Assembly (NCBI RefSeq): GCF_030144855.1
Contig: NC_082708.1
Coordinates: forward strand, 67,704,001 to 67,768,000
Direction of reading: 5' to 3'
DNA length: 64,000 bases
Origin: Hypanus sabinus
Taxonomy: Eukaryota
In this document: positions 37,531 to 64,000 of the stretch, in pieces
How the letters are laid out: every line of letters begins with the position of its first letter
How positions within the stretch are numbered: position 1 is the first letter of the stretch
Position numbers and translations under genes: made by a program
Notes under the pieces: model-generated
The model's input: the letters and a program-made list of their open reading frames with translations, nothing else
Database searches by the model: none
What the model was told of the DNA's origin: nothing

Positions 37531-37559
37531 CTCCCCAGGAAAGAGAACAATCACTTCAG

Positions 37560-38590
37560 CATGTAGGAAGACCTAAGTTCTAAGTTCAGGAAGATTAAGT
37601 TCAGTTTAAACAAGTTGTGAAAATGCTGTTGTCCTATTATATTACTTAAGTAAACAGAGTGGACCATCACACAATCACTATCTCCAGCAAGAGAGAGTAT
37701 ATTCATCTCTCCTTCACATTCAAAAATATTTTCATCATCAAAAGCTGTTGTCACTGATTAACTGTCTCTGACAACTCGCACTCATTCTCCAATCATTCTT
37801 CATTTACCTGTGCACAAGGAGAATGTCTTGGCTCCTGTCACCAAAATGTTCTGAAATGTCAACGAAGAAATGTTGTTTTTATACAGATATTGATTAGTTG
37901 TATGCAGATATTCATCCAATAGGAACATTGTGCAGTTCTAAATCCCAGCATTTGCATACTTAAATACCAATAAAAATACATATTTCAGATGTGAATAACC
38001 TATTAAATGTATGTGTTAAAGGCTAATAATCTTGAGAATTAGTAAAATAGCTGTCCAATAATAAGTTTTGCCCCAGAATTCTTCATTTGTGTTTATCTTG
38101 TCTTAGTGTAGTTTGATGAACTTGGCCCCCAAGATTGAACAGAAAGACAGAGAGTTAGACTTCAAGGGCTGTTAGGCCTGGGTGACTGGACTAAATCTGT
38201 ACACTATCTCTGTCAGATTATCATCTTGACTCTTACTTTACTGAACTTCCACATTCAGAAAAGGCTGGGTAAAGGGAAGTCCAGAGATTTGGTCTGTTCT
38301 GAGCAACAAGGGCAGTTTTGAACAGTACACTAACAATCATTGTTCGGACAACTGAAAAATGTTCTGTCAATTGAAATGTAGATCAAAGTTAGCAGGAAGG
38401 GTAAGAGTGGTGAAAATGTTACTGCGCTGTTACATTATCTAAATAAAAGAGTGGCCTGTCACACAATAATCATTTCCAGCAAGAGAGAGTATATACGTGT
38501 CGCTCCTTTACATTCAAAAATATTTTCATCATCAAATGCTGTGCTTCATTGATAGTTTTGGAATGAAGAATGGAAGATGTAAAGTCAGAT
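37560..38590. repeat. Unclassified ~0.8-kb low-copy repeat, about 1.3 tandem units (copy A)
   Basis: Block aaataaaagagtgg..caagagagagtata..cattcaaaaatattttcatcatcaaa occurs at ~37640-37745 and ~38435-38535; the region aligns with 56960-57617, 61700-62040 and 63290-64000. Confidence 0.9.
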
Positions 38591-38689
38591 TTCTTTTCAC
38601 TTACATATACAATAAAATATCTTATAGCAGCAATACAGTGCAATAAATAAAAATACTATAAACTACAAAAGAAAAACAATCAGAAACCA

Positions 38690-39015
38690 CTATTAAGTGC
38701 CAGAGAAGAGCCCAGTGTGGTCTTCTGCTGCTGTACCCCATCCACTTCAAAGTATGGCGTGTTGTGCATTCAGAAATGCTCTTCTGCACACCACTGTAGT
38801 AACATGTGGTTACATGAGTTACTGTCATCTTCCTGTCAGCTTGAAACAGTCTGGATATGTTTTTCTGACTTCTCATTAACAAGGTGTTATTGCCCGGAGC
38901 ACTGCCACTCACTGGATTTTTTTTTTTGTTTGTTTTTTGAACCATTCTCTGTTAACTCCAGAGATCTCTGGAATAATTTGAGGAGTAAAACACATCCAAT
39001 GAAAATCCCAGGAAT
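38690..39015 (-). mobile_element. Tc1/mariner non-autonomous derivative, left part
   Basis: SRLFQADRKMTVTHVTTCYYSGVQKSISECTTRHTLKWMGYSSRRP = Tc1 transposase DNA-binding region; paralog at 62170-62982. Confidence 0.8.
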
Positions 39016-39017
39016 TT

Positions 39018-39290
39018 TGGGGTGGCTTAGTGGTGCAGCAGTTAGCGTGATGCTGCTACAGCTCGGGACACCAGAGTTCAGAGTAGTTTCAGCACCATCT
39101 GCAAGGAGTTTGTATGTTCTCCACTTGACCACATGGGCTTCCTTTGGGTGCCCTGGTTTCCCCCCACAGTCCAAAGATGTACTGGATAAATTGTCCTGTG
39201 ATTAATCTGGTCTTAAATGGGTGGGCTGTTGGGTGGTAGGGATATTTGGGCTGGAAGAGCCTGTCCTGTGCTGGATTTCTAAAGAAATAA
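39018..39290 (+). mobile_element. V-SINE inserted in the Tc1 derivative
   Basis: tRNA-like head, gcaaggagtttgtatgttctcc, ttcctttgggtgccctggtttcccccacagtccaaagatgt. Confidence 0.8.
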
Positions 39291-39299
39291 TAATCAGCA

Positions 39300-41960
39300 T
39301 TCTCTCAGGTTTAGTTGGTGGAATCTTACAGGGAAGCATTCAAAAACAGCTCCTAACTGAAGCACAGTATATATTGAAAAAAGCAGTGGAAATCACTGTT
39401 TCAATGGAAACCGCAGTCAGAGACGCAATTGAGTTGCAGTCAGGAATGAAAGTGAGCACACATCAAGTTGCAACGTATAACAGAAACCAACGTAGTGAAG
39501 CAAATTGTGTTTCCATTATGGCACAGGCTCATAGCTATCTAACAAATGCAGAGTTAAAGGTGAAACTTGCAGAAAATTCAACAAAGCAGGTCACATACAA
39601 AGATCATGTTGGGCAGACAAAAAATTTACACATGGGAGAGAAAGCAAAAATGACAAATTGTATTTTCAAAGAGAGCACTAACCTGCACACCGTTGATAAA
39701 AAATCTGATAATGATGAGAGTGACACAGGTTTGTGTAGCCTTGAGATTAACAGTGTGAAAATTAACAATAGACAAACAATGTGGCTTATGCCAGAAATGA
39801 CTGTCAAATTAATTAAAATGGAATTGGAAACTGGTTCAGCTGTTTTATTCATTCCACAAAATGAGTTTGAATGGCATTTCAAAGATACTAAACTGAAGCT
39901 TGCAGATATCCAGCTAAGAACTTATACTGGAGAAAAGATAACTCCTGTGGGAAGGACATTTGCAGCAGTGAAAATACAACAACCAACAAGCCCCATTGAG
40001 CTTGTAGGTGGTAAAAATAGAAGGATCCGCATTGTGGGGACATGATTGGCTGAGACAAATATAACTTGTTTGGAAATCCATCCACTGTTAGCATGCCACA
40101 TCCCTTGTTATGAAGCCATATTAAGGTGAATTAAGAAAGGTACTGGATGATGCCAAAGCAGTTTCAAGAATGGCATTGGAAAACCCAAATATATCAAGGG
40201 TAAAATACTATGAAATGAAAATGCCACACTCAAGTTTTGCAAAGCCTATCCAGTTCCTTATACCATCCATGATAAAGTAGCCTGTGAGCTAGATCACATG
40301 AAGGAATTTTTCCCAAGGTTGAGTGGAGTCCATGGGAAATACCTGTAGTCCCAGTAGCCAACAATAATGGGTCTGTCAAGATATGTGGTAATTTCAAGGC
40401 GTAGATGGAGATGGAAGAAAAGTCCAAAGGGTTTCTCATCATAAGCACTCACAAAGGGCTGCATTGGTATAATAGTCTTAGTTTTGGAGTGGCAGCTATA
40501 CCTGCACTCTGGCAGAAAGCTACGGACCAGGTGCTGCATGGCTACCCAGGCACTCAGTGATACCTGGATGACATCTCCATTACTGGTAAGGATGACAAGA
40601 AACATCTTCAAAACCTCAAGACAGTGTTAAAAAGGTAAGAAGATTATGGGCTCAGAGCACGATGTAACAAGTGTGAATTCTTATAAGCAGGCATCACTTA
40701 CACATCACTCAATTGACACATAGGAATTACACAAGCGTGCTGAGAAAATTCAAACTGTGGTGAATGCCCCAAAGCCAAAGGACGTGTCACAGTTCTGTCC
40801 TTTTTAGGATTTGTCATTACTATAAGAGGATCCTGCAAAACCTGGCTACAGTGCTCCACCCCTTGAACTCATTACAGCAGATCGGGAAGAAATGGCAATG
40901 GACATGGCAGTGTGAGATGAAACTTAAACACAGATTGACAGAGAGGCCCTAATTCTGCTCTAGGGTGTAAAACGTTTCAACTAGTACTTGTATGGGAGAG
41001 GGTTTACCTCGTTACTGATCATCAACCACTGGTGTCCATTTTCAATCCCCAGAATGATGTCCTACAAACATCAGCAGCACAAATGCAGAGGTGGGCTCTG
41101 TTTCTTGGAGGACATTTACAAGATTGAATTCAAGAGGTCAGCTAATATTGGGAATGCTGAAGGATTGTTCACTTTACTCTTGGGAAAGGAAGTACCTGAA
41201 AAACTTAGTGAAAAAGACACTCCTCTTGATGTATTCTCCCTAATCCAAAACAAAAGTCTCCTTATTATGGCAGGGATGATCCAAAGGGAAACCAGAAAAG
41301 ATCCCACACTGTCAGATCTACATGGCCACCCAACATGCAACAGAAATCCCAGTTCTTCCATTTTTACCATTGCTGGGATGAGTTTGTCCTTGATGGGGAT
41401 TGGGAGTAGTTATAACATCCGTGCTGAGAGCTAAAGCTTTGGAGGAGCTACATGCCGGTCATCTAGGTATGGTCAAAATGAAAGCATTGGCTCAAAGCTT
41501 TGTCTGGAGGCCTGGGCTAGTTCAGCAGATTGAGCTGCTTGCCTGGCACTATACACGATGTCAACATGTCCAGAAGATGCCAAGAGCAGCACTTCTCTCT
41601 CCCTGGGAATGGCCTGCATTGCACTGTCAGAGGATTCGTGTAGATTTTGCTGGACCATTCATGAGCACAGATTTCTCAGTAGTATTGGATGGAGCTACAA
41701 GGTGACCAGAAGTGTTTCCAATAGCCCCCACTGCAACTGCACACACTGTTGATCTAACAAAAAGCCCCTTCACAAGGGTTGGTATACTAGAACACTTAGT
41801 CAATTGTGGGGGAACAGTTACAATCATTTCTAAAAACTGAATTGAATAAGACATATTACATATGCACTATATCACACAGCTACAAATGGCTTGGTGGAAA
41901 GGTTTCTCCAGAGTCTAAAGAATGCACTGTGAGTAATGTCAGCAGAACACACTACACTAA
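39300..41960 (+). mobile_element. Ty3/Gypsy (Mag-like) element: gag end, PR, RT, RNase H, integrase; no 5' LTR
   Basis: KMELETGSAV (LDTG-like), QLRTYTGEKI, SVKICGNFK, YLDDI, LLTDHQPLVSIF, LEELHAGHLGMVKMKALAQSFVWRPGL..CQH, QRIRVDFAGPF, SHSYKWL/NGLVERF. Confidence 0.9.
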
Positions 41961-44072
41961 CATTATTCAACTATGGCCCAAGTGCGGAGAGACAGACGCT
42001 GAAAGGAAAAAGAAAACAATAAACACTAGGCCAAACGGGGCCATTATCTAAAACTCTCAAACAGAAAGCTAGAAGCCAACCCAGCGGCTGAAAGCTATAT
42101 CTGAATATCAAATGAATACTGCTAGTCTTCAGCCTCAGTCGACTTGATAGTCCACGTTCTCAGACAAGGCCAAATGCAAGCATGCAGCTTAAAGTTTTGT
42201 GCTTTGCTCAAGTCTCAGGAAGCACTACAATGAAAAGAAGGAGTTAAATATCGTCACAATGTAATAATAATTATCTGACATGAGCATACTTATGAGTGCA
42301 ATTGCCGAATCTGCTGCGCTGATGAATCTGTGGTTGTGACAGGTGCAGTTCCTGAGGCGCCACAGCTGTGCCTGCTGGAAGTCCCAGATGAGCAACTTGT
42401 CCAAGATGTCCTTTGCTGGGTTCAAGAGCTTTTCTCAGGATCATGCCCTTCCTAATCCACAAGATACTGGACCTGACAACGTACCCGGCGAGAGTCAGGA
42501 GGTACAGTATAGACCAGAGGACCATACACCAAGTGGGAAGGAGGGGGACGAGGGGTAACTGAGCACAGGGGAGAGGTAGTAACAGGCTTGAACAGAGAAA
42601 CAGGGAACATGGGGTGGATTTTCATTGACACTGTTAGACGCAATCTGTACAAGATCTTGTTGACAGCCTTTTCCATTACAAATGGTCCCACATAGTGCAG
42701 AGCAAATTTGCAGTTCTCGACTTTCAGGGGAAGATCACTTTGTACTGACTAGACCTTGTCTCCTGGCTTGAAAGGCCTCACCTGTCAGCGGAGTGGATCA
42801 CCCTGCCAGGTATATTGTTTCTCGCTCGTCTCCAGATTCATTTGTAGTGCGAGATCAGCTGTTTAGTAGCAGGAACTCCTAATTAACCTCCTGATCAGGG
42901 AAGAGCAGGGACTGGAATCACTTCTGGAATTCAAATGGAGACATACCTGTAGAGGATCTGGAGGTTATTGTGGTTGATCTCTGCCCAAACCAATTGGGAG
43001 CTCCAGGACGTGGGGTTGGAAGAGGCAATGCAGCGCAGAGTTGTCTCCAACTCCTGGTTCACTCTCTCAGTCTGGCCATTGGATTGGGGTGAAAACCAGA
43101 TGAGACGCTGGCCATGGCTCCTACTAGAGAGCAGAAAGCTTTCCAAAAGAGGGAAGTGAACTGTGGTCCATGATCAGACGCTATGTCTTGGGGAAAGCCA
43201 TGTGGCAGTCTCATGAACTGATGGGAGCTTGGGGAGGGCAAGGAAGTGGGCAGCCTTGGAAAATTGATCCACAAAGACCAAAATTGTAGAGTTCCCATTA
43301 GAGAGGGGCAGACCAGTGATGAAATCTACTGAGAGGTGGGACCAGGGGCAGTAGGGCACAGGCAGTGGAAATTGCAGATCCACAGGAAGCTGGCATGATG
43401 TCTTGTTCTGAGCAGAGGTGGGCTAGGCAGATACGAAATTGTGGACATCCTAGGACATAGATGGCCATCAACATTGTCTCTTAATAAACCTCTGGGTCCG
43501 TTGAATTGCCGGATAGCCAGTCAGACAGGAGGAATGACCCTTTTCCAACACTTTGGAGTACACCATGCAGGGACAAATTGCTGGCTAATAGGTCACCCAC
43601 CCAGGCCTGGATCCAACTATTGGGCGGCCTTCCCCTCTGCTTCTATTCCCCAGATTACCAGAGCAGTGATGTACAAGTGAAGAAGGATGGGCTCTGGATC
43701 GGTATTGTCCTCAGATCCATCAAACTGCTGGGAGAGGCCATGGGACTTGGTATTCATCTTGCTGGAACAATAGAAAGGATTAAATTAAAATGAGTGAAGA
43801 TGAGAGCCCAACAGACTTGACAGAGTTGAATCTCTTTCTGTCCTGAATATAAGAGAGGTTTCTGTATCTGTCCAAGCTAAGAAACGATTATCTGCCCTAT
43901 CCAGTCTGTGTCATCATTCCTCCAGGGCCTCCTTGGCAGCTAGAAGTTCCCAATTTTCAACATCAGAATTACTCTCAGCCAAATTCAGGTGACAGGTAAG
44001 AAAGACACAGGGTTCAGAAGGGCGTTGAGAGAGAACAGCTCCAATGCCGACATCAGATGCATCCATCTTGAC

Positions 44073-44965
44073 TATGAATGTGGAGAGTCTGCAGAGGGAT
44101 ATAGATAGGTTAAGTGAGTGGGTCAAGGTCCGGCAGATGGAATACAACATTGGTAAATGCAAGATCATCCACTCTGGAAGGAATAATAGAAGATTAGATT
44201 ATTATTTAAATGATAAAAGATTGTAGCACATTGTTGTACAGAGGGACTTGGGAGTGCTTGTTCATGAATTGCAAAAAGTTTGCTTGCAGGTACAACAGGT
44301 TATTAAGAAGGTAAACGGAATGTTGGCCTACATTGCTACAGGGATTGAACTCAAGAGAGGGATTTCATGCTGTAACTATACAGGGTACTGGTGAGGCCGC
44401 ACCTGGAGTACTGCGTGCAGTTCTGGTCTCCTTACTTGAGGAAGGATATACTGGCTTTGGAGGCAGCGCAGAGGAGGTTCCCCAGGTTGATTCCAGGGAT
44501 GAAGGGGTTAACCTATGAGGAGCGATTGAGTCGCCTGGGACTATACTCTCAGGAGTTCAGAAGAATGAGAGGGGATCTTATAGAAACATACAAAATTTTG
44601 AAAGGGATAGATAAGATAGAAGTAAGAAAGTTGTTTCCATTGGTAGGTGAGACTCGAACTAGGAGACATTGCCTCAAGATTCAGGGGAGAAGATTTAGGA
44701 CGGAGATGAGGAGAAACTGTTTTTCCCAGAGAGTGGTGAATCTGTGGAATTCTCTGCCCAGGGAAGCAGTTGATGCTTCTTCACTAAATATATTTAAGAT
44801 ACAGTTAGATAGGTTTTACATAGTAAAGGAATTAAGAGTTATGGGGAAAAGGCAGGTAGATGGAGCTGAGTTTATGGACAGATCAGCCATGATCTTATTG
44901 AATGGTGGGGCAGGTTTGATGGGCTGGATGGCCTACTCCTGCTCCTATTTCTTATGTTCTTATGA
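44073..44965 (+). mobile_element. CR1 LINE 3' portion inserted in chromovirus RNase H
   Basis: [66 protein letters not shown]; (ttcttatg)n tail. Confidence 0.95.
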
Positions 44966-45117
44966 TGGGTCTGGGTGTTGCAGCACTGGAGCAGTGGTGA
45001 AATATCACTTTAACTCCAAAAATGCTTGGTAAGCATCGTCAGTCCAGTGGAATCCTGCCAAGGACCTCCTGATGAGCGCATTTATGGGAGCCGTGATAGA
45101 TCTGAAATTCTGGATGA

Positions 45118-45627
45118 AACATAGAAACATTGAAAACCTACAGCACAATACAGGCCCTTTGGCCCACAAAGTTGTGCTGAACATGTCCCTACCTAAGAAA
45201 TTACTAGGATTACCCATAACCCTCTATTTTTCTGAGCTCCATATACCTATCCAAAAGTCTCTTAAGAGACTCTATCACATCCGCCTCTTCCACCAACATT
45301 GCTGGTAGCCCATTCCATGCACTCACTACTCTCTGAGTAAAATACTTACTCCTGGCATCTCCTCTGTACCTATTCCCCAGCACCTTAAACCTGTGTCCTC
45401 TTGTGGCAACCATTTCAGCCCTGGGAAAAAAGCTTCTAACTAACCACACGATCAATGCCTCTCATCATCTCATACACCTCTAACAGGTCACCTCTCATCT
45501 TCCGTCGCTCCAAGGGGAAAAGGCCGAGTTCACTCAACCTGTCTTCATAAGGCATGCTCCCCAATCTGGGCAACATCCTTGTAAGTCTCCTCAGCACCCT
45601 TTGTATAGTTTCCACATCCTTCCTGTA
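45118..45627 (-). mobile_element. CR1 LINE 3' fragment
   Basis: YRKDVETIQRVLRRLTRMLP, RGDLLEVY, FTQRVVSAWNGLP; (gtttctat)n tail at 45118. Confidence 0.92.
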
Positions 45628-47396
45628 ATGAATTGAATTTGAATGAACTTGAATTGTATTGACTTTATTACTTACATCCTTCACATACATGAGGAGTAAA
45701 AATCTTTATATTACATCTCCATCTAAATATGCTACGTGCATTCATAGTAATTTATAATGAATAGAACAGTCAATGTAACATAGAATACACTCAAACCAGC
45801 GTTTCATCAGTCTGATGGCCTGGTGGAAGAAGCTGTCCCGGAGCCTGTTGGTCCTGGCTTTTATGCTGTGGTACCGCTTCCCGGATGGTAACAGCTGGAA
45901 TAGATTCTGGTTGGGATGACTTGGGTCCCCAATGATCCTACGGGCCCTTTTTTACATGCCTATCCTTGTAAATGTCCTGAATCATGGGAAGTTCACAACA
46001 ACAGATACAGGGGGTTGTCCGCACCACTCTCTGCAGAGTGCTGCAATCAAGGGAGGTACAGTTCCCGTACCAGGCAGTGATGCAGCCAGTCAGGATGCTC
46101 TCAATTGTACCCCTGTAGAAAGTTCTTAGGATTTGGGGGCCCATACCAAACTTCCTCAACCATCAGAGGTGAAAGAGGCACTGTCGTGCCTTTTTCACCA
46201 CACAGCCAGTATGTACAGACCACATGAAGTGCTCTGTGATGAAAGCACTGAGGAACTTGAAGCTGCTTACCCTCTCAACCCCAGATCCATTGATGTCAAT
46301 AGGAGTTAGCCTGTCTCTATTCCTCCTGTAATCCACAACCAGCTCCTTTGTTTTTGCAACATTGAGGGAGAGGTTGTTTTCTTGACACCACTGTGTCAGA
46401 GAGAAGACTTCTTCCCTGTAGGCCACCTCATTATTGTTTGAGATAAGGCCAACCAGTGTAGTGTCATTGGCAAATTTAAATAGCAGATTGGAGTTGTGGT
46501 TGTGATACAGTCATGGTTATACAGGGAGTAAAGGAGGGGACTCAGTACGCAGCCCTGAGGGGCTCCTGTGTTGAGAGTCGGAGGGTTGGAGGTGAGGGAG
46601 CCCACTCTTACAACCTACTGGCAATCTGACAGGAACTCCAGGATCCAGCTGCACAAGGCAGGATCAAGGCCGAGCTCTCTGAGCTTCTTGTCAAGCCTGG
46701 ATGGAACTATGTTGTTGAATGCTGAACTGTTGTCCAAGAACAGCATTCTCACATAAGCATCCTTCTTCTCCAGATGTGTAAGGACAGTGTGTAGAGCTGT
46801 GGCTATTGCATCGTCTGTCAATCGGTTGTATCAGTAGGCAAATTGTAGGGGTCCAGTTTGGGTGGTAGCAAGCTGCAGATGTAATCCTTGACCGGCCTCT
46901 CAAAGCATTTGCTTATTATTGAGCTGAATGCAACAGGACACCAGGCCTTCAGACACGTTACCTTGGTCTTTTTTGGTGCAGGGACAATGGTGGATGATTT
47001 GAAGCAGGAGGGCACTCTACACTGGGAGAGGGAGAGATCAAAAATGTCTGTAAACACACCTGCCAGTTGTGCTGCGTACATCCTGAGTACTCGCCCTGGG
47101 ACGCTGTGTGGTCCAGCAGCCTTCTGACTGTCTACTCATTGGAAACATCTGCGTACCTCAGCCTCAGAGATGACCAGGTTGCAGGTAGTAGCGGTGACTT
47201 TCCTCGAAGGCTCAGAGGTAGCGACATCGAACCAAGTGTAAAAGCAATTGAGCTCATCTGGTAGAGAGGTTGCAATGTTGGCGGCACCACAACATTTGGC
47301 TTTGAAGACTGCGATGGTAGGCAGCCCTCGCAACAAGTCACATGCGCTCTTCGTTGTGAATCTTGACTCAGTCTTCTCCCTATATTGTTGCAATAG
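45628..47396 (-). mobile_element. Rex1/Babar-like LINE, 5'-truncated
   Basis: [87 protein letters not shown]; (attca)n tail at 45628. Confidence 0.95.
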
Positions 47397-49308: not shown

Positions 49309-50164
49309 TTAATGGCGGTACTTTTTTTGAGGCGTTGCCTGCTGCATGCTGGGGAGGCTTGTGCCATGATGGAGCTGGCTGAGTTTACCATGCTCCACAA
49401 CATTTTTTTCCCAAATCTGTACATTGACCTCCTCCATGACAGCCAGAGATGTAACCAGTTAGAATGCTGTCATGAAACGTCTCTAGAAATTTGCTACTAA
49501 TTAGCCATGGATAAAAGTAATTAGAACCTCAGTATTCTGTAGCAAACATCTCACCTAACTCCACTAAACCTGTCATGTTGCACTGTCAACATGGAAATCT
49601 TGGTTGTTGCCAGGACTCAATAGACTAAGTTATAAGGAGAGCTTGGGCAGGCTAGGACTTTATTCCTTGGAGTGTCAGAGACTAAGAGGCAATCTTATAG
49701 AAGTGTATAAAATCATTTGGGGCATAGATGCATGAGTTGTATGCATATGGTCTTTTTCCTACTTTGGGAAGTCAAGAACTGGAGGAGGTTAGATTTAAGG
49801 AAAGAAGGAAAAAAATAGTAGAAACTGAGAGTCAAATATATACTGGCTGGTATGTTTATGGAATGAGCTGCTGGACCATGTGGTTGAGGCAGGTACAAGA
49901 GCAACTTTTAGAAGACAGTTGGATAGGTACATGGAAAGATTTAGAAGTTTATGGTGCACCCCAAAAGAAAATGGAATGGATTAATCCCTGTCATCAATGG
50001 AAGAGAGGCCCATGACTGAGGCAGAAGTTGGAAGATAAAGATGAAGGATTTGGAAAAATGGATGGTGTCCTGAAAGAAACCATATGAAAGGGATCAAAAC
50101 AGGAATCATAGTAACCAATCACCTTCTCTGTAAAATTTTACAAGACAGATGTGTTCACCTAGTA

Positions 50165-51786
50165 CGGGGGTCGGCAACCCGCGGCTCCGGAGCCACATGT
50201 GGCTCTTTTACGTCTGTGCTGCGGCTCCCTGTTGCTTTGGGAAATAATTGGTTGTGGCGACCCTTTTCCTGGCACATCCGAACCGACTCACAATTAGATA
50301 GCCTACGGGGGTTTGTGAGCACAGAGCTTTGGAGCCTCTGCGCCATGGGGGGGGGGGCAGGTTGGGGGGGGGGGCAGGTTGAGGGAGGCTTAAAAGTGAG
50401 GCTGAAGATTTCGAATAAAGTTTTTTCCTTCGACTGCAATTACCGACTCCGTGTCGTAATTTTAGCGCTGCGTGTAGCACACCGCTACATGGTCAGTATT
50501 TAATTAAAATGTATTTTATGTTAGTTTGTTAGTTTTTGAAATGTAAATCTAAATTTGAAGATTATGGTGATCTTGTACAATCTAAATAAGACGTTGTGGC
50601 GACCCATTTTCTGACACATCCGAACCGGCTCACAATTAGCCAGCGTTCAGGCTAAGGGAGATAGCCTACGGGGGTTTGTGAGTACGTGTCTTTTGGAGCA
50701 TCCGCGCCCATGGGGGTGCGGGTTGAGGGAGACTTAAAAGCAAGGCTGTTTAGTTCGAATAAAGCTATCTTTGACTGCAGTTTACTGACTGCGTGTAGCA
50801 TGCCGCTGCAACTTGTTTTTATCGCTGGCTGTCCAGAGGGGAGGTGCTGAAACGCTTTGTCGCGTGTCTGGAAGAAGTGAAAACTTTCCTGGGCAGCAAA
50901 GGGCTCACCTTTCCTGAGCTGGAACAGCCAGAGTGGCTGGAAAAGCTACACTTCATGGTAGACATGACAGCGCACCTGAACACGCTGAACACAGCTCTTC
51001 AACGGGGTAAGGACGTACAGCCCTGCACATGTTGGAGGATGTTTTGGCATTCGAGCGCAAGTTGACGTTGCTTGCCAGAGATTTACAGAAAGGCACTTTG
51101 TCTCACTTCCCCAATTTGAGAGAGTTCAAACAAGGTCACGACATGATAAATTCAGAGTATTTACATTCTGCAATCATCGCAATGCAAACATCGTTTGGGA
51201 AACGCTTCTGTGAGTTCAGAGAGGAAAAAAACACATTATCCTTCCCGGTCACTCCCCTAAGCATCGATCCATCCCTACTGAATACGACTGCATTGTCAGG
51301 TGTGAGTCAACCTGAACAAGTATGATAAATATTTTAATTGCCTATTATTTTACGTATATTCATATGTTTTCATTGTTCAGTGAAATAGTCCTTTTATTTT
51401 TCAGGTTGACAGCTGGCTGACGTTATTTTTGGTTTGCTGCTGGCGGCAAATTTAAGTTTGGCGTTTTTCATAAATACAAGAAGGACTCAAATAGACGTTG
51501 AGTATTTTACTTAAAAGTAACCTTCAACCCAACGTCTCTTTTTCGGAGTTCAAAATGTTTTTGTTGCATGCAGAAATGTAATTTCGTTTTCTCTGCAGGA
51601 GTTCATCAATTTCATAAATGCAACACATTATAGTTTGTTTATACATAGCATAAAGGCAAAACAAAACGTTGTATGCAGTGTTATTTCATTTTAAATGTCA
51701 AACGGGTTTTGCGGCTCCCAGTGTTTACTTTTCTGTGGGAAACGGGTCCAAGTGGCTCTTTCAGCGGTAAAAGTTGCTGACCCCTG
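50165..51786 (+). mobile_element. hAT DNA transposon (Buster/Charlie group), internally deleted, 1622 bp
   Basis: Perfect 8-bp TSD ACCTAGTA (50157-50164 and 51787-51794, nnnTAnnn type); TIRs CGGGGGTCGGCAAC / GTTGCTGACCCCTG; transposase piece RWLSRGEVLKRF..WLEKLHFMVDMTAHLNTLNTALQ..FERKLTLLARDL..LSHFPNL (50823-51325, one frameshift). Confidence 0.97.
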
Positions 51787-52269
51787 ACCTAGTACAACAG
51801 CAGAAGTGTTCAAGGCAGGATTCCAGGAGAGGGATGGTGGTCACAGGAATCTCTTAAAGGTGTAGCTGCTGCTTAAACATGTTCAAAGTGTGAGAGTGTA
51901 TTCAAGGTGTCAACAGAGAGTGAACCGGTATTCACAGGAGGTTATCAGCAACATCTCCATGGTTTCCAAGGGACAGTGTTCACAGGGGTCAGATTCAGAT
52001 AAATTGTATCCAGCATATGTACATCGAAACATAAGCGAAATGCATCATTTGTGGCAACAACCAACACAATCTTAGAATGTACTGGGAGCAGCCTGCAAGT
52101 CATCAGTGACATCAGAGTGTTTCCCAGGGAACCACAGGCTGTCGGACAGTGTTCACAAAAAATCTTCACAAATATCTTTCCTATGATTCATTTATAATTC
52201 CCCCTATAATATTGCACTTTATTGCAAAATTCTTTACGTTTCAATTGAACTGGCAAGAATTATTTAAAT

Positions 52270-52452
52270 ATTTTCTGGAATGCCTCAGCATTTTCATGTT
52301 CAAAGTACTATTTTAGCCCCGGATCTCCCTTAACTCAGGGAAGTGGGCAAAGAGAATGAACAATCCCATTTCTACCCAGGAGATCCAACCCATTCCCAAA
52401 ATCACAGACACAGGGACACCTTGGAAATCAGTTACTCCTTTCACACATTTCA
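52270..52452 (+). repeat. Paralog of 63130-63283 (part of the local duplication)
   Basis: Shared gaagtgggcaa-gagaatgaacaa-cccatttctaccc-ggagatccaaccca..gacacagg-acacc-tggaaa-cagtt-ctcctt. Confidence 0.9.
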
Positions 52453-52684
52453 TTCCATTGTAACCCTGCAAATTACCAAGGTTTTTACTAAATGTGAAGT
52501 TGTTAGGTTTAACTAAACAGGGAGAGGTCAAATCCTGACATCAACAAACCACTGTCACAATGAGCTGTTACATCACAATAGGTTTCAAACTCTGGTCACC
52601 TGCAGGCCAGAGGCACAACAACCTCCCTCAACACAGCTGGAGTTTGCTTTTCTGATTGGGAGGCTAGAGCGTTACAATCCTTCT

Positions 52685-54850
52685 GGGCTGTAAATTTTAC
52701 TGATCTTCTGATTTGACCAGTCTCCAAGTGGCAAGTCTGGTCCTTGTGTTAGCATTCCCAAAGGATCTGCATGGATTGAGTCAGGACCTCATGGTAGTAC
52801 AATGGGCTGACAGGCCTTCACCTGGCTGATGGACTTCCTTTCCTCAGTGAGGTTTCATCATGGCCTCGACTCCTTTCCTGGAACAGCACCTTCCATAATT
52901 GAAATCCAATACTGGATTGGATGCACCTGGCAGTCTGGAAGAGAGCACATTCTGTTGAGAAGGAGAAGCATCTGAAAGAGGAAGAACTGGAGATGATGAG
53001 GAAGAGGACACACTAGGACATTGAGCAGTACCACAAAGAGCCAAAATGCCTCTTCCAGAGATTCAGGGTCCTGGTCCTTGGTGGGATTTCATCCCAGTTT
53101 TGACTGACTTGCCTGATCCCCTGCTTTCGTGCCCACAGCACCCATGTTGCTCACAATGTGGGCTGTTTTGGTTCTAAGACCTTCCACTGGTGGACACACT
53201 GGTTGGTGATGTCCTGGTCTCCAACCATCCACCCTGAGTGAGAGTCATCCTGAAGCCTCAGGATGGCACTTCCCCTGCCAGGAATGTGCCCACTGATCTC
53301 TTGTTTTGTTCCAACTCAGAGAACCAGGATTCCAGGATCTCAGCCTTCTCTAGACTCAGTACTATGGCCCTCAGTCTCTTCAGACACTTTGGAACCTGAG
53401 TGGGGGTGCTACATTCAGGACCAGTGGGCTTCTGGGCATTTCCATAGGCCCAGAGTATGAAGATACAATGGATATTGTCCAGTTCCAGACTCAGGGCGGG
53501 GTTAAGTCTGCGGGTCTCCAGACAGAAGTCCAGAAGTCTGAAAATTGGCCAGGGCCCAATCCTCGATAGCTCTGACTAGGCGACACATTGTTTCACATTG
53601 ATGCCTGAGCAATGGGTTGAGACTCTTGGCCCCATCTGCTGGGGTTGGACAATCCACCAACTGGCTCCCTTAGCTGCTCTGAGCTCCACCCTCATAAGTG
53701 GATCATCCACATGGAGCCAGTCAGGAATCCCTCCTTCAGTCAGGAGGTGTTACCAGCTCAGCAAGCTGCTTACATCCATGGATAATCACCATTCTGCTTG
53801 AACATCAGGCAGAGGCTCCATAGCCTGTGGTCCATTTTCAGCTCCTTGGTGCCTGAACTCCAGGATGTTATTGGAAGTTGAAGTGGATACAGGTTCTGGT
53901 TAACCTTTTCCATGCCTCACAAGACAGCCTCCTCATTGCCCCCTTTGTGCTTCACTATTGCCAGGTCAGCTTAGGAGCTAACAGGAAAATCCTAAGTCTC
54001 CCAACGTTTAAAGTTAAGCCGACACTCTGTAGGGAATCTCTTCATCCTAACATACTCCACACATTGCTGGACACCGTGTAACTGGACCTCAGGCTGAGGA
54101 AGATGGAACCAGTGAGGGCTATCAAAATCAAAATGAGGGCTATTCTCAGACACCATCACTATAGCTAAAAGGAGCTGAACAGTCAGGACATGGATCTGGG
54201 CTTCCCAGCTTCAGATTGATGCTCTGGCTGTTCCATGATGGAACTCCCATCAAGTTATGCAATCCCAGCCATATGGCGTTCACTGAGAATGCTCACTTTG
54301 ACAGCCTCCTCCCAGCCAGGCACCTCCTCTCTCCTCACACTCTGGGCTGCTTTCTCAGTCACCAGCTGTGTGTGGAGAATGCCCTTAGTGAAGATCAGCT
54401 TCTCTGTAAACTGGTCCTTTGCTTGCTTTTCCCTTGTAAGCTTCCACTCATTCTTCACCGTTTTCTACCTACCTAGATAGATGTCCCATTGGGTGTTATG
54501 GAGAGTACTGGGTCTGTTTGTTCCTCTTCCTGGACTGGCTTTAGGTGTCAACAAGCTGGAACATGCTCACAATTCCCCCTGCACAGGAACCAGCAAAGGA
54601 GGGGAGAAACAACATTTTTTTTGGCTTTGAAAGGAAGAGCATCAAAAACACGCCTTCAAATGGAGACCACACCTGGAGATATTTTCTGCTGCTTAACTTC
54701 CCCCACCATCCCACCCACCAATCTTTGGGAGCCAATGTTTCATTCAATCAGTGCTGGCACAGCCTGCCCTAAAGGATGGGATCAGCCCACAGCCAGTCAC
54801 AAGCTCTTAAATTGAGCACTGTGGGGAAGGATGGAGGAAGGTTTTGGCCC
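52685..54850. mobile_element. Possible very old PIF/Harbinger remnant
   Basis: GC-richer block starting gggctgtaaattttac; plus strand has faint TWLM..SIIE..SG then an acidic tail ending LFQRF; convergent minus frame EKAAQSVRREE..VSILSE resembles Myb/SANT-ORF C-terminus; all weak. Confidence 0.3.
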
Positions 54851-55314
54851 AATGATGCATGTCATGGCATCTGTCTTGCTGTTGGTTGAAGGGTGGGATG
54901 AGATACCATTGAGACGAAGCTCTGAGTTCAGATGGAGAGAGTGGTCACAGAATGTATCACACACAATATTGTTTCAATGATTCATCATGATTTACCATCT
55001 GGAAGTTGTGTGGCATTGACCTTCTCGGGTGCGTTTGCTGACTTATGCAAATTTATATGGAGCACTGTCACAAGAAATTAGCATCCATCATTAAAGACTC
55101 GCAGCCAAGCAGGCTATGCTCTCTTCTCATGACTGCAGTTGAACAGGAGGTGCAGGAACATTTGGTTCAGGAACAGTTATTACCCTACAGTCATCTGTCT
55201 CCTGAAATTGTATTGATAACTTCAGTCAACTCAACCCTAAACTGATTCCACAACCAACAGACTCAAGTGCTCCCAGCTCACACAAATTCAAGGACTCCCA
55301 ACATTTTGCTTCTC

Positions 55315-55870
55315 CCAAGGATGTAATATGGAGGCTTTATAAGGCACTGGTGAGGCCTGACTTGGGGTATTGTGAGCAATTATGAGTCCTTATTAAAGGA
55401 AGGATGTGCTGACATTGGAGAGGCTCAGTGGAGGTTCACAAAATGATTCTGGCAATGAAAGGCTTATCATATGAAGAGCAAATGATGGCTCTGGGGGATC
55501 TTATTGAAATCTTTCAAACGTTGAAAGGCCTGGATAGAGTGGATGTGGAGAGGATGTTTCCTATCATGGGGGAATCTAGGACCAGACAGAATAGAAGGAC
55601 ATCCATTTAGAATGGAAATGAAGGGGAAATTCTTCAGCCAGAGGGAAGTGAATCTGTGGAATTCATTGCCACAGGCAGCTGTAGAGGTCAGGTCCTTGGG
55701 GGTATTTAAAGCGGATGTTGATAGGTTCTTGATTACTGGGCATGAAAGGTTATGGGGAGAAGCTAGGAGAGTGGGGTTGAGTAGGAAATGGATCAGACAT
55801 GATGAAATAGTGGAGAAGACTCGATGGGCCAAATGGCCTAATTCTGCTCCTATATCTTATTGTCTTATGG
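55315..55870 (+). mobile_element. CR1 LINE 3' fragment within Rex-type tail fragments (~55060-55270 and ~55880-56065)
   Basis: LYKALVRPDL, GDLIEIFQTLKGLDRVD, FFSQREVNLWNSLPQ; tcttattgtcttatgg tail. Confidence 0.9.
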
Positions 55871-56379
55871 AATATTCGTGTTGTCAGTATTATTTATTTT
55901 TTTATTTCCAAAGTTTATCTTTTGCACATTGGTTGTTTGTCAGACTTTGTGCATTGTTTATCATAACTTGTATTTCTTTATTTTCCAGTAAATGCCTGAA
56001 AGAAAATGAATCTCAAGTTAGTATATGGTAACATATGTGAACTTTGATATATATTTGACTTTGACTAAGTGATTGACCCGAGATCAGCTGGATCTCCGAG
56101 TCTTGTCCCAGTCTTCGGTGGGGGGCGGGGGCTGTGTGTGTGGATATTGATGCTTAGACACACAAACACACAATTCACAGGCATGCATGCAACAACTGTA
56201 AGTTCAGCTTAAAGGAGTTTGAAAATGGTGCTGTTCTATTGCATTAATAGTACGATCACTCGAGTTAAGTATAATATTCTCCTAAGGGGTTGTCTATTGG
56301 TGGGTCCTCAGTTACCTGTACAGATCTAATCCAGTCCCACATATTCTGGTGCAGTGTGGGTAAGGGTAAGTAATGGCTG

Positions 56380-56960
56380 TGGTTTGTCGTTTAGTCTCGC
56401 CTCTCACAGCTGCCTGGCACTTGTTCCCTATGGCACACTGGAGGATGTTCTCATACAACATAGCTCCCTCTTGAACTGATTTCCTCCAGGTGTATCCGTT
56501 GTGTGCATGGTCTTCTCTGCTTTTAGATTTATCATTGAATTTCTTCAGGATGGATTTGATGTTATCTTTGAAGTGTTTCCTTTATGCACCAGGGGCTCAC
56601 TGACCTTTGTTCAACTGCAAGTAAAGAATCTGTTTGGGAAGATAGAAGTTAGGCATCCAAGTGAAATGACCTATCCTTTGGACTTGGTATTGCTTTATTG
56701 TGGTGGAGATGCTGCTTATGTTGGCCTCCTTCAGTGCATTGCTGTGAGTGGGCCTGTCCTTCCAGTTGATACTCAAATTCTGTCGTAAGGATCTTTTGTG
56801 GTGTTGATCCCCACTGTAGATGATCCATGATTCAGCTCCATACAGCAATGTCGGAATTACGACTGCTCTATAGACCAAAGGATTTGTTTGTATCTGTAGG
56901 CCATGGTCTTCAAAGATTCCTTTCTTTAATCTTGCATAGGCTCCACTACCACTGCTCAGT
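56380..56960 (-). mobile_element. RTE-clade LINE 3' fragment
   Basis: AYARLKKGIFEDHGLQIQTNPLVYRAVVIPTLLYGAESW..SLRQNLSINWKDR..RIGHFTWMPNFYLPKQILY typical of RTE/BovB-like ORF C-terminus. Confidence 0.88.
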
Positions 56961-57617
56961 ACATTACCTAAATAAAAGAATGGACTGTCATACAATCACT
57001 ATCTCCATCAAGAGGGAGTATACTCATCTCCCCTCTACATTCAATAAACATTTCATCATCAAAAGCTGTTGTCACTGATTAATCTGACAACTCACAGTCA
57101 TTTCTCAATCACACCTTACTTACTTGAATGCAAGGAGAATGGTTCGGCCACTGTCACCAAACTCTCCTGAAATCTTCACAAAGAATTGCTATTTTATATA
57201 GAAATTGACTAGTTGGAAACAAGTATTAATTTATTCATCCAATACAAACTTTGTCTATTTCTGAATCCCATCTTTTGCATATTTAATACAGATTTCATGC
57301 ATTAATAAGCAATTAAATATACATGCTAAAGCCTAATATGTTTGAGAATGAGTAAAATAGCTGACCAATAATGTGTCCTGCTAAAATCCTTCATTTTCAT
57401 CTTCAGCTTGTCTTGGAATACTTCGTGACCTTGGTACCCAGCCTCGAGCAGAAACACTGTAGATAAAAAAGTTAATCATTCAAGGGCTATGTTCAGCTTG
57501 GGAGACTGGACTATGTCTGTATACTGTCTCTATCAACTTATCATCTTCACTCTTGTCTCATTGAACTTTCATACTCAGAAAAGGCTGGATAAAGGGGAGA
57601 CCAAAAGTTTGGTCTGT
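56960..57617. repeat. Unclassified ~0.8-kb repeat, copy B
   Basis: Colinear with 37640-38300 (e.g. catcatcaaaagctgttgtcactgattaa identical); truncated by CR1 tail at 57618. Confidence 0.9.
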
Positions 57618-60600
57618 TAGAGTCACAGAGTCATGGGAAAGTACAGCACCAAAGCAGGCCCTTTAGCTCATCTAGCCCCTGATGAACCATTTAACCTCCC
57701 ATTGACCTGCACCTGGACCATTGCCCTTCATACCCCTGCCATCCATGTACCTATCCAACTTCTTTTAAATGTCGAAATTGTGCCCACATGCATCACTTGT
57801 GCTGGCAACATATTCCATGCTCTCATGACTCTCTGAATAAAGATGTTACCCCTCATGCTACCCTTAAATTTTCACCTTTCATCCTTAAAACAAGACCACA
57901 AGTTGTGGTCCCAGCCAACCTCAGTGGAAAGAGCCTGCTTGCATTTACCCTATCTGTACCCTTCATAATTTTGTATATCTCTATTAAAACTCCCTTGACC
58001 TTCTATGTTCCACGGAATGAAGCCCTAAACTATTCAATCTTTCCTTATAACTCAGGTGTTCAGGAACAGACAACATCCTGGTAAATTTTCTCTGTACTCT
58101 TTTAACCTTGGTAACATCTTTCCCGTATGTAGGCAACTAAAATTATACATAATACTTCAGATTAGGCCTTGCCAACGTCATATACAAGTTCAACATGACA
58201 TCCCATCGCAACAGACAAACTGCTCGGCAACTCACCAGGTCAGACAGCATCTATGGAAATAAATGAACAGTCAATGTCTTGGGCTGAGACCCTTCTTCAG
58301 GACTGAAAAAGAAGGGGGAAGATGGCCAAATAAAAGGTGGAGCGAGGAGAGGGAGGATAGCCAGAATGTGATAGGTGAAGTCAGGTGGGTTGGAATGATA
58401 AAGAGCTAGAGAAGAAGGAATCTGATAGGAGAGTGGACCATAGGAAAAAGGGAAGGAGGAGGGGGCCTGGGGGAGTGATAGGCAGGAGCAAAGAGGTAAG
58501 AGGCCAGAGTGGGGAATAGAAGAAGAGGGGAAGGAGAGGGATTAATCTTTTTAATGAAAGGAGAAATTGTTACTCGTGCCATCAGGTTGGAAGCTACCTA
58601 AACCAAATATTAGGTGTTGCTCCACCACCCTGAGGATGGCCTCATCTTGGCACAAAAGAACGTGATGGACCAACAGGTTGGAATGGGAATGGGAATCAGA
58701 ATTAAAATGTTTGACCACCGGGAAGGCTGCTTCCCATCTTCTGTTCTCAATATTTTGATTAATGAAGGCCAAAGTGCCAAAAGCTTTCTCATTGAGCCTA
58801 TCTACCTGTGCTGCCACTTTCAATTAATTATGGACCTGTATTTGCAGGTCCCTTCTCAGTCCCCTACCTTTCAGTGTGCAAGACTTCCACTGGTTGGTCC
58901 TACAGAAATGCAAAGCCTTGCAATTGTCTGCATTAACTTCCATCTGCCATTTTTCAACCCAGTTTTCCAGCTGGTCATATCCTGCTGCAAGCTCTGATAG
59001 TCTTCCTCGCTGTCCACTGCACCCCTTATCTTGGTGTCATTCACACATTTGCTTATCCAGTTAACCACATTATCATCCAGATCATGTATATAGATGAGAA
59101 TCAACAAAGGACCCAGCACTGATCCCTGCAGCACACCACTAGTTGCAAGCCTCCAGTTAGAGGGGCAACCATCTACTACCATTCTCTGGCTTCCCCCACA
59201 AAGCTGATGTCTAATCCAGTTTACTACTTCATCTTGAATGCCAAGCGACTCTTCTTTGTTGACCAACCTCCTATGCAGGACCTTGTCAGTTGCCTTGCTA
59301 AAATCCATGTAGACAACATCCACTGCCTTGACTTCATCAACTTTCTTGGTAACTTCCTCAGAAAGCTCCATAAGATTTGATAGGCACAACCAACAGTGCA
59401 CAAAGCCATGCTGACTATCCCTAATCAGTCCATGTCTACCTAAATACTCATCTCTCCAATCCCTTAGAATACCTCCCAATAACTTCCCCACTACTGATAT
59501 CAGGCTCTTTGGCCTATAATTTCCTGATTTATTTTTAGAGCCTTTCTAAAACAGTAGAACAACATTAGCTATCCTCCAGTACCTCACTTGTTGCTAAGAA
59601 TTAATTCAATAACTCTGCTAGGGCCCCTGCATTTTCTGCCCTTACCTCCCCCAGGGTCTGAGGGACACCTTGTCAGGCCCTGGGGATTTAGACACCCTAA
59701 TTTGCCTTAAAACGGTAAACATCTCCTCTGTAATCTGTGTGGGTCTCATGACCTCACTGCTGATTTTGCTCTTTTCTATAGACCCTGTGTCTGTCTCCTG
59801 AGTGAATACCGAACCAAAAAATCCCATTTAAGATCTCCCCCTTCTCTTCTGGCTCCATGCACAGATTACCATTCTGATCTGCCAGAGGGCTAATTTCATC
59901 CCTTGCAATCATTTTGCTCTTAATAGGACAAATTCATGCCTTCTTTTAGACCTTCTGCTTTCTTTATTAAGTGTTTTCTTTCATTTCTTATACACCATAA
60001 GTAACTCATTTGTTCCTACCTGCCTATACCTGCTATACACCTCCTTCATTTCTTAACCAGGGCCTCAATATCTCTTGAAAACCAAGGAAACTCTATGGAC
60101 TGAAACCACCCTGAACATACTTGACAAACCCTATCCCATCTAGTCCTTTCACAGCATGAGCTTTCCAGTCAATATGTGGATAGTCAACATTACCTACTAT
60201 AACAATCTTATGGTTCTTGCAACAGTCAGCAATCTTCCTACAAATTTGTTCCCCTAAATCCCACAGACTGTTGGGTGGTCTATAATACAGGCCCATTAGC
60301 ATTGTCTTACCTTTCTTATTCCTCAGATCCACCCATAAAGCCTCACTAGACAAGTTATCCAGTCTGTCCTGACTGAGCACTGGCATGACATTTTCCCTGA
60401 GTAGTAACGCCACCACTCCCCCTTTAAACTCTCCTGCTCTGTCACGTCTATAACAACGGCACCACAGAATACTGAGCTGCCAGTGCAGCTCCTTCTGCAA
60501 CAAAGTCTCACTAATGGCAACAATATCAAAATTCTGTGAGTTGATCCATGGCTAGACCTCATCTGCCTTCCTTACAATATTTCATGCACTGAAGTATACA

Positions 60601-61690
60601 TTGCTCAGAACATTAATCACACCATGCTCAAACTTTTGATATCTGACTTTGTCTGAATCTTAACAGCATCTACCTCCACTATCTGTTCTGGCACACTGGC
60701 TCGCGTTCCCCTGTAACTCTTAATTCAAACCTCTCCCCCATGCAGCACTAGCCAACCTCCCCACTAGGATATTAGTATGCCTCTACTTCAGGTGCAACCC
60801 TTCTCTTCTCTACAGATCCCAATTTCCCTGTGTAGTCTTCCTATCTGTGGCCTCAATAGCTTATGGCAGGGTTAGCAATCCTGAAAACACAGCCCTGAAG
60901 ACCCTGTCTTTAACTTACACCTAACTCCTTGAACTCACTTTGCAGAACCTCGTCACGCTTCCTGCCTATGTCATTGGTGCCTACATGGACCACAACCTCT
61001 GGCTGCTCAACTTCCCACTTAAGAACGCTGGGGACACAATCCAAGATCTCCCTGACCCTGGTACCCGGGTGGCAACCATACCATCTGACAATCTCAGTCT
61101 CCGTCCACAGAATCTCCTCTGCATTCACCTAACTAATGAATCACCACAGTGTGCCTGTTCTCCCCGCTTTCCTTCCGAGTCACAGAGTCAGACTCAGTGC
61201 CAGAGACCTGATTGCTGAGACTTTCCTCTGCTAGGTCATCCTACTCAACAGTGTCATAAGTCTACCTGTTATTGAGGGTGATGGCCTCAGGGGTACTCTG
61301 CACTGGTTGTTTAACCCCCTTTGTCCCCTTCCTGACTGTCACTCAGTCAATGTGTTCTGCACCTTGGGTATAGCCTACCTATGTCCTATCTATCACATTT
61401 TCAGCCTCCCAAATGATCTGCAGTTCATCCAGTTCCAGCTCCAACTCCTTAACATGGATTGTTAGAAGCTGCCCCGGATGCATTTTTCACATGGGAGTCT
61501 CCCTGCTTTCCCACATTCCGCAAGAGGAGCATTCAACTATCTATCCTGCCATCCCTACTAACTGTGCAAATATAAAGAAGGAAACAATAAGTAAACTGCC
61601 AAAAAAAATATACCTACTGTCTTTTTTTGCCTTCTCTCATTCAAACCTCTCCTCATTGAAACCTCGAAGAGCTAACGTATCAAATAACCA
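57618..61690 (-). mobile_element. Long degraded CR1 LINE (ORF1 zinc finger/zipper + SGNH esterase, APE endonuclease, RT, 3' tail)
   Basis: VECSSCGMWE..ELELELDELQII; EQPEVVVHVGTNDIG; YRRDR..GGVVALL..GLYYRPPN..VGNVDYPHIDW; KSPGPD; DSQHGF..VDVVYMDFSKA..SGVLQGSVLGP; tail (tgactcta)n at 57618. Confidence 0.93.
58208..58731 (-). mobile_element. Penelope-like 3' fragment inserted in CR1, 7-bp TSD
   Basis: PVVKHFNSDSHSHSNL..EQHLIFGLGSFQPDG (GIY-YIG end); TCCCATC at 58201-58207 and 58732-58738; hammerhead-like motif at 58268-58305. Confidence 0.9.
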
Positions 61691-61699
61691 CTCTAACAC

Positions 61700-62040
61700 T
61701 TGTCATCTTGACTCTTGCCTAACTGAACTTCCACATTCAGAAACAGATGGACAAAGGGAAATTGTAAATGAGCACGCACTTGAAAAATAGTCTGAAAAAT
61801 AGTCTGTCATGTGAAAAGTAGATGAAAGACTAGCAGAAAAAGTAAGCTCAGCCTAAAAAAATTGTGGAAATGTTATTATTCAAGTACATAACCTAAATAA
61901 AAAGAGTGGACTGGCACATAATGATCATCTCAATCAAGACAGAGTATACATCTCACTTGTTTACATTCACTGGCATATTCATCATCAAATACTGTCCTCC
62001 ATCAATAATCTTGGAATGAGGGATTTAAGATGGAAAATCA
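61700..62040. repeat. Unclassified ~0.8-kb repeat, copy C (partial)
   Basis: Aligns with 38220-38590 (tcatcttgactctt..ctgaacttccacattcagaaa; aaataaaagagtgg; ttggaatga). Confidence 0.88.
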
Positions 62041-62149
62041 GAATCAGAATCAGGTTTATTATCACTGACATGTCATGCGATTTGTTGTTTTGCAGAAGTA
62101 ATACAGTACAATAAATTTTAAAAATACTTTATATTACCAAAAAATACAA

Positions 62150-62982
62150 TCAGTATATTTAATCGGTATGTGAGTGGAACCCAGTGTAGCACCTCCTCTT
62201 CAAGGTTCAATGTTTGATGTGTTCAGCATTCAGAGATGCTCTTCTGCATAGCACTATTGTAACACGTGGTTATTTGAGTTACTAATGTCGTCCTGACAGC
62301 TTAAACCAGTCTGGCTATTTTTCTCTGAATTTTCACTAAAAGGTGTTAGTGCCCGCACATTTACCTCTCACTGGATGTTTTCCATTTTTGAACCATTCTC
62401 TGTAAACTCCAGAAATCTCCAGAATAATGCAAGGAATGAAAAATATCCAATGAAAATCCAAGGAGATTTGGGGCACCATGGTAGCGTGAAGCCACTACAC
62501 CAGAAGCATCAGAGTTCAGAGTACAATGTCAGCATCATCTGTAATGAGTTTGTATGTTCTCCATGTGACCATATGGGTTTCCTTGGGGTGCTTGGGTTTC
62601 TTCCCACAGTCCAAAGATGTACTGTGTAATAGGTTAATTTGTCATTGTAAATTGTCCTGTGAGTAGGCTAGTGTTAAATAGGTGGGTTGCTAGGCAGCAC
62701 AGCTCATTGGAGTACAAAGGTCTGTTCTGCGCTGTATCCCTAAATAAATAAAAATCAGCAGTTATTTAAACCACCCCATCTGGTACCATTAATTATTCCA
62801 AGGTGAAAGACTCTTAGATTATATTCCCTCCCCATTTTGATATTTGGTCTGAACAACAGCTGAACTTCTACACTGCGTTTGCATGGTTTTATGCATGGAG
62901 TTGCTGCTATATCATTGGCTGATTAGATATTTGCATTAATGTGCAGGCATACAGATGTTCCCAAACAAGTGGCCACTGAGTG
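62150..62982 (-). mobile_element. Tc1/mariner non-autonomous derivative with nested V-SINE (~62468-62752)
   Basis: Paralog of 38690-39290 including the SINE at the same site; ends agtggccactgagtg|TA, a Tc1-like terminus with TA target. Confidence 0.8.
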
Positions 62983-63289
62983 TATATAAAATAAGTACTG
63001 TTAAAGAAAAGTGGTGGGTTGGAGACACGTCTCTACCAAAGAGGTGTAAGGCATTCCTTCCCTCCACTAGCCTGCAGGTCACTCTTGGGTAAGGTTTAGC
63101 ACCTGCCTAGCAAGAATGATTTAAATACTTTCTTCAGGAACTCAGCATTTCCTTGTTCCCATGCCCTGGTTCTCCCTTAACTTGGAGAAGTGGGCAAGGA
63201 GAATGAACAAACCCATTTCTACCCGGGAGATCCAACCCAGACACAGGAACACCATGGAAACCAGTTGCTCCTTTTACACATTTCTTCTC

Positions 63290-64000
63290 ATTGAAAATAG
63301 ATATTCATTTAGTCATCCAATTCAAACTTTGTCCATTTCTGAATCCCATCATTTGCATATTTAAGTACCAATCATAATACAGATTTCAGATGTTAATAAC
63401 AAATTCAATCTGTGTTAAAGGCTTATATGCTTGGCAATTAGTAAAACTAACTGTTCAAAAGTAAGTGTTGCTCTATAATACTTTGTTTATGTCTTCATGT
63501 TGTCTTCGTATGCTTGGAGTCTTTGGTCCCCAGCCTTGATCAGAAAGACTACAAAAGAAAGTTAGGCTTACAAGGGTCGTCTTCAGCCTGGGTGACTGGA
63601 CTAAGTCTATACACTGTCTCGGTCAGCCCGCCATTTTGATTTAATGCATTTCCACATTCAGGAAAGGCTGGACAAAGGGAAGTCCAAAGACTTGGTCTGT
63701 TTTGAGCATCTAGGCAGGTTCAAACAGTACACCAACTATCACAGTTCAGACACCTGAAAAATGGGCTGTTAATTGAATTGCAGACAAACGAATAGCAGAA
63801 ACCTTAGCCTAAAAGATTTATGGAAATGTTATTATTCTATTATATTACCTAAATAAAACAAGTGGACTGGTACACAGTGACCTTCTCCATCAAGCGAGAG
63901 TATACATCTCAGTCCTTTATATTCAAAGACATTTTCACTATCAAATGTTGTCCTCCATCAGCAGTCTTGGAATGAGGGATGTAAGGTGTAAAGTTAGAAT
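63290..64000. repeat. Unclassified ~0.8-kb repeat, copy D (runs to window end)
   Basis: Colinear with 37900-38590 (e.g. gcctgggtgactggactaa, ttccacattcag, aaagggaagtcca, ttggtctgtt). Confidence 0.9.

Follow-up and report, generated by a model that had tools for sequence, protein, structure and literature searches.

Among the closest described systems are the tandem segmental duplications of vertebrates, in which nearby blocks in the same orientation share transposable element (TE) junctions and decay neutrally. Unclassified low-copy interspersed repeats, which form the 'Unknown' class of RepeatModeler, and small non-autonomous LTR elements (TRIM), in which direct repeats surround a short non-coding middle, also come into consideration. 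In the 64,000-bp stretch of the Hypanus sabinus genome analysed here (contig NC_082708.1, positions 67,704,001 to 67,768,000; hereafter the window), five related sequences, termed cores A to E, were recognized on the same strand. These cores belong to partial copies of a larger block. The odds lie, in our estimate, slightly in favor of a single composite block, now present as three or four partial copies in the same orientation, which was duplicated locally, is likely decaying without function and descends from an unnamed non-coding repeat.

A preliminary description, made by eye, had placed five cores on one strand, the first two about 790 bp apart; all five were recovered at these sites by self-BLAST of the window, a more sensitive pass and alignments (Table 1), and the A–B spacing is 792–794 bp. 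The score of core A against core B is 165, and the maximum among 300 shuffles is 28. The two subtypes described after the core proved to be real in the alignments: the type A cores (A and C) continue into the spacer, and the type B cores (B, D and E) into a tail of about 50 bp. The left ends of cores A and C were both cut by inserts, core A being truncated by a repeat-rich stretch. At 37583–37605, in the left part of core A, a contig of run X8 has about 155 letters and the window 21, a length difference that, as read from the letters alone, would be a lineage-specific insertion or deletion.

Table 1. Positions in the window of the block copies, the pieces assigned to them and the inserted DNA
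Feature	Position	Strand	Remarks
Core A (type A)	37587..37752	.	Strict core 37638–37742; self-BLAST, alignments, read depth
Spacer of block A–B	37753..38400	.	Self-BLAST, alignments, read depth
Core B (type B)	38406..38589	.	Strict core 38431–38536, plus tail of ~50 bp common to D and E; alignments
Train of three repeat fragments	38590..39299	.	Common to block D; low-copy joint 38925–39005
Gly-X-Y-like piece, copy 1	52250..52463	-	Broken by frameshift and stops
Displaced left end of core C	56199–56246	.	Insert of ~710 bp between; score 59, shuffle maximum 38
Core C (type A) and spacer	56960..57618	.	Core 56960–57063; ends at TE boundary
Inserted retroelement DNA between C and D	57619..61690	-	Reverse transcriptase 58874–59545 (PF00078, E = 3.8e-11)
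Extra spacer scrap	61691–61760	.	Corresponds to 38218–38278
Spacer end, core D (type B) and tail	61792..62044	.	Core 61885–61989
Repeat train	62045..62760	.	Collinear with 38590–39299
Gly-X-Y-like piece, copy 2	63107..63296	-	Joined directly to E spacer; open for 54 codons (63137–63298)
Spacer, core E (type B) and tail	63302..64000	.	Core 63841–63945; truncated by window end

The repeated unit had been taken as a monomer of about 0.8 kb in five turns. This does not hold: there is only one intact core-to-core period, and the real unit is a larger composite with the order Gly-rich piece, type A core, spacer of about 650 bp, type B core, tail and train of three repeat fragments. The displaced left end of core C, the repeat train and the Gly-rich piece are absent from the preliminary description. 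Within 27 kb, self-BLAST gave three same-strand homologous alignments, 682, 710 and 1010 columns long, and the surviving copies are scraps of 0.35–1.7 kb. The spacer was correctly assigned to block A–B (37750–38400), but D, which had also been credited with it, holds only the scraps 61691–61760 and 61792–61834; the further holders are C (57071–57618) and the stretch before E (63302–63798). Spacer identities are 407/527 for A–C, 385/484 for A–E and 301/395 for C–E, a divergence of 20–24%. The copies are thus clearly diverged, as had been said, but the 70–80% identity estimated by eye becomes 76–80% for the block copies and reaches higher in the cores (72–84%, gap-free, over the ten core pairs). 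Because the extra scrap before D duplicates spacer that is already present in C, C and D may be two separate blocks. In the spacer of A, an 18-bp direct repeat with its copies 21 bp apart occupies 37877–37915.

The left 37 kb (window 1–37500) contains no significant copy of the unit; the copies are bunched towards the right end of the window, and the cluster may therefore continue beyond 64000. On the minus strand, 4260–4330 gave a weak match to the core profile (E = 0.002–0.011) that is probably due to chance. No array was found over the unit by TRF at periods up to 500, and, in agreement with the preliminary description, no long terminal inverted repeats, by which a DNA transposon or MITE would be bounded, were found in three scanned regions. 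Nor was any terminal inverted repeat, long target duplication or tail found that would mark the ancestor as a TE, which tells against the favored reading.

The composite nature of the block is seen best in the flanks of B and D. Beyond the tail, these flanks are collinear for about 750 bp (score 122, shuffle maximum 29) and contain the same three repeat fragments at identical junctions, together with a low-copy joint at a depth of about 1x. The shared train measures about 710 bp; this comparison is of B with D, E being truncated by the window end. One train fragment has a Tc1/mariner-like helix-turn-helix match (PF01498, E = 3e-4, short of the curated threshold), and another has a high copy number and is presumably SINE-like. 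Since it is implausible that such a train was inserted twice, independently, at identical junctions, the block was duplicated after the train had formed; between B and D the train fragments differ by 21–23%, like the spacers. Of the proposed old tandem array shredded by TEs, local multiplication and the subsequent cutting by TEs (the train at the same junctions in B and D, inserts that split C and part C from D) are supported, and the plain head-to-tail array of 0.8-kb units is not.

The DNA inserted between C and D amounts to about 4 kb. At 39206–44198, starting directly after block A–B, lie the remains of an LTR retrotransposon (Integrase_H2C2, SH3_Tf2-1 and RT_RNaseH), which may cut this block. 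A DNA-transposon-like insert at 50165–51789, which we take to be a hAT element, has similar inverted ends and an exact flanking duplication of 9 bp, and interrupts an unexplained stretch (about 49940–50160 and 51790–52480) adjoining the Gly-rich piece. Within 51931–52160 there is a short repeat with relatives at 30267–30423 and 22949–23048; it is bordered by a diverged duplication of about 50 bp with 14 exact bases in common (51971 and 52144). The translations of 290–2700 and 58210–58720 are, we assume, Penelope-like (GIY-YIG-type motifs), and the ORFs scanned there had no Pfam match.

In the core tree, built on 105 sites, the grouping is (A,C),(B,(D,E)) (support 84/90); eight informative sites unite D and E, six A and C, and two A and B. 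This grouping indicates that the internal duplication likely preceded the block duplications, and the tree is not clean, A being equally close to B (84%) and to C. The breakpoint of this older internal duplication is the point at which the subtypes diverge; between the B tail and the start of the spacer no similarity was found. The following order of events would account for the locus. An old low-copy sequence would have undergone an internal duplication of 140–190 bp or more, from which cores A and B arose at a distance of 790 bp; three repeat fragments would then have become neighbors of core B. The block, presumably of about 2 kb or more, would next have been multiplied in tandem, with unequal crossing-over as the likely mechanism, and later insertions and deletions would have cut the copies. 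One likely deletion would have brought the Gly-rich piece to the E spacer.

Mismatches between spacer copies are flat over the three codon positions (47/212, 44/212 and 46/214 for A–C; 31/163, 32/161 and 37/163 for A–E), and those in the cores are 20/35, 22/36 and 16/36. In all six registers, stops common to at least two copies were found (12–25 of 343 columns); the best A–B frame has 11 stops in 300 codons, which 11% of 2000 resamples equalled or bettered. Parts of A–B are present in 13 runs under seven organism labels, with no RNA run listed among them, which tells neither way, and orthologues and depth were compared in four runs at 80% likeness over 36900–39300. In run X1 the orthologue differs at 34/1465 sites. 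In run X8 it differs at 24/339 and 63/811 sites, and the repeat-rich flank at 45/508 (7.1–7.8% against 8.9%), so that the unit shows, in these small samples, a slightly lower divergence than the flank. There is no clear constraint on the unit, and the divergence of the X8 orthologue is near-neutral, as far as such samples go. The corrected divergence of the blocks is about 0.24–0.29; the distance to X8 is roughly a third of this. Given the mutation rate of one shark (7 × 10^-10 per base per generation, as given in the available part of PMC10587355), the block duplications are probably very old, and no date is claimed for them.

Copy number was estimated from run X14 (1934 Mb of raw Hi-C reads, about 1/100 of the run), with the eight lowest bins, chosen by us, as the baseline (mean 0.73x). 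Core bins have depths of 0–1.7x, the exception being the bin that covers the right end of A, with 5.5x. Among the spacer bins, three have 18–22x (about 24–30 copies), two 7–9x and two about 1x. Parts of 37710–38276 thus have roughly 7–30 detectable relatives genome-wide, a lower bound since a paralogue of the joint known at 84% identity went undetected, while some of the depth may represent short chance matches; the spacer relatives may number in the low hundreds. The neighboring repeats reach 1362x and 4674x, i.e., thousands for the adjacent transposons against tens for the spacer. At 37950–38000, alternative letters were found in up to 37 contigs of X1 and 18 of X8; among the 14 sites listed, they agree with copy C at 8/11 and with copy E at 10/13, and true relatives therefore exist outside the window. 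One relative matches 37876–38030 at about 80%, in an alignment of 155 bp without gaps that recurs in contigs from three runs, X1, X8 and X15 (the last an RNA run by guess). Copies C and E carry 8 bp in excess of A, and this relative lacks the extra bases.

The main rival to a non-coding repeat ancestor, which we rank ahead of it, is a host gene in several copies that encoded, on the minus strand, a short and interrupted collagen domain. Such a gene would have been dead before the local duplications or shortly after them, leaving the spacer and cores as its decayed globular part or its introns. We regard this as possible, clearly more likely than the other alternatives but still doubtful. It draws on the Gly-rich piece of 190–210 bp, which was co-duplicated with the block and hints at a dead gene: one copy abuts the E spacer, at a junction likely left by a deletion, and the other lies 3.7 kb beyond C, while none was found near A. 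Read on the minus strand, the piece gives short Gly-X-Y runs that amount to no more than about ten triplets and are interrupted by breaks in which Cys and Pro occur. Copy 2 has four G-x-x-G pairs and three PG/KG dipeptides in 40 stop-free codons, and this 40-codon stretch is unique in the 64 kb. The strict Gly-X-Y rule was satisfied in 0/150 Markov-resampled windows and the relaxed rule gave 0.03 hits per window, both being post hoc, since the rule was set with the sequence in view and was loosened after its first version had missed the observed piece. The two Gly-rich copies are identical at 164/187 sites (88%), against 1093/1406 for the spacer (Fisher p = 0.001); this better conservation, which a gene origin would explain, speaks against the composite block of non-coding origin, and tens of relatives would also fit a gene family. 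However, mismatches in the Gly frame show no third-position excess (4/48, 7/48 and 5/48) such as coding constraint would leave, and splice-like sites, judged with an approximate matrix, are not rarer than in the background. By eye, the runs with Cys-containing interruptions resemble interrupted-helix collagens (type IV or FACIT-like) and shark egg-case hybrid collagens, as we take these types to be built, but differ from them in the small number of triplets and in having neither a Pfam or sequence match nor a sign of selection.

The protein searches likewise gave this gene no homologue. In Pfam, nine frames of the Gly-rich pieces matched neither Collagen nor any other family at E < 0.04, and no homology of these pieces to a known collagen was found. 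Over 21 frame translations of the unit the best value was E = 0.057; the 110 ORFs of at least 85 aa gave only TE domains and one DUF6604 match (E = 0.008). Word-indexed searches of longer proteins, a weak method, scored none of 1046, 6 and 221 candidates. PDB contained no homologue (best E = 0.057), and the best ESM Atlas scores of 0.75 and 0.79 mean low recognition. The sole match among 1.84 billion representatives, P0003 with one minus-strand frame, was an artefact of 20 summed repeat domains of at most 3.9 bits each, without tblastn support. These negative results hold as far as the libraries cover cartilaginous fishes. Resemblances noted by eye to TSPN, collagen IV NC1, C1q, vWA and LDL-receptor class A modules, to Ig V/J segments with recombination signals and to hammerhead ribozymes found no support in the searches and were dropped.

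It is a long shot that the window is the left edge of a dead, cartilaginous-fish-specific cluster of collagen-domain genes, for example of the egg-case hybrid collagens reportedly described by Goh et al. in 2022, lost in a live-bearing lineage, with the off-window relatives as the rest of the cluster. Neither the repeat nor a loss of egg-case genes came up in literature searches. Elasmobranch egg capsules consist mainly of collagen from the oviducal gland, according to the available part of PMC10230700, and in that of PMC9999432 nothing was found on shark egg cases. If the gene origin were true, the locus would be a datable pseudogene record of a lineage-specific structural gene family, possibly linked to egg-case loss.

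The core-spacer-core arrangement could also be a TRIM-like element with the cores as terminal repeats: direct repeats of 140–190 bp flank about 600 bp of non-coding middle, AATAAA is present in four of the five cores, and A and B are 84% identical. We consider this improbable, because across blocks the cores group by position and not by element, because they are rarer than the inner part, the opposite of a solo-LTR excess, and because homology extends past core B into the tail and the repeat train. The RNA-cluster, viral and satellite origins that the preliminary description had offered found no support. The core might be the RNA of a tandem non-coding cluster (box C/D snoRNA-like, or a piRNA or lncRNA source), given that RTGATGA, which we take as a box C motif, is aligned on the minus strand of four of the five cores and that a 386-bp contig of the supposed RNA run matches 37876–38030 at about 80%. 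That match, however, falls in the spacer and not in a core, and TEs are covered in the same run; Rfam gave nothing at gathering score (best E-values 1.1–1.2), the consensus folds were weak (two-sided changes in 0/26 and 1/7 pairs), and we consider this origin improbable as well. An origin as an endogenous viral fragment or as a long-period satellite, with which the lack of host annotation and the single 790-bp period would agree, is about as improbable: in viral contigs, protein patterns from a part of the frames were confirmed in 0/20 and 0/201 candidates and one DNA motif was empty, as were the metagenome scans. For a satellite, one would have to reconcile a single intact period, no three full monomers in a run and no homogenization at 20–24% divergence.

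In short, the unit is real and of an ordinary kind, and no name was found for it by the searches run. On this reading it matters little beyond annotation, as an old repeat without a name and as an example in which a local duplication is dated from TE insertions common to its copies. As a non-coding repeat it resembles the low-copy interspersed repeats of the RepeatModeler 'Unknown' class in lacking an ORF and clear ends, in its tens of diverged relatives and in its uneven coverage. As a set of copies it resembles old intrachromosomal tandem (segmental) duplications, since the blocks lie near each other in the same orientation, carry TE insertions whose junctions coincide and are decaying neutrally. 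This situation differs from that of typical segmental duplications, however, in that identity between blocks is far under the 90% of the usual working definition, which applies to recent duplications, and in that the copies have been reduced to scraps.
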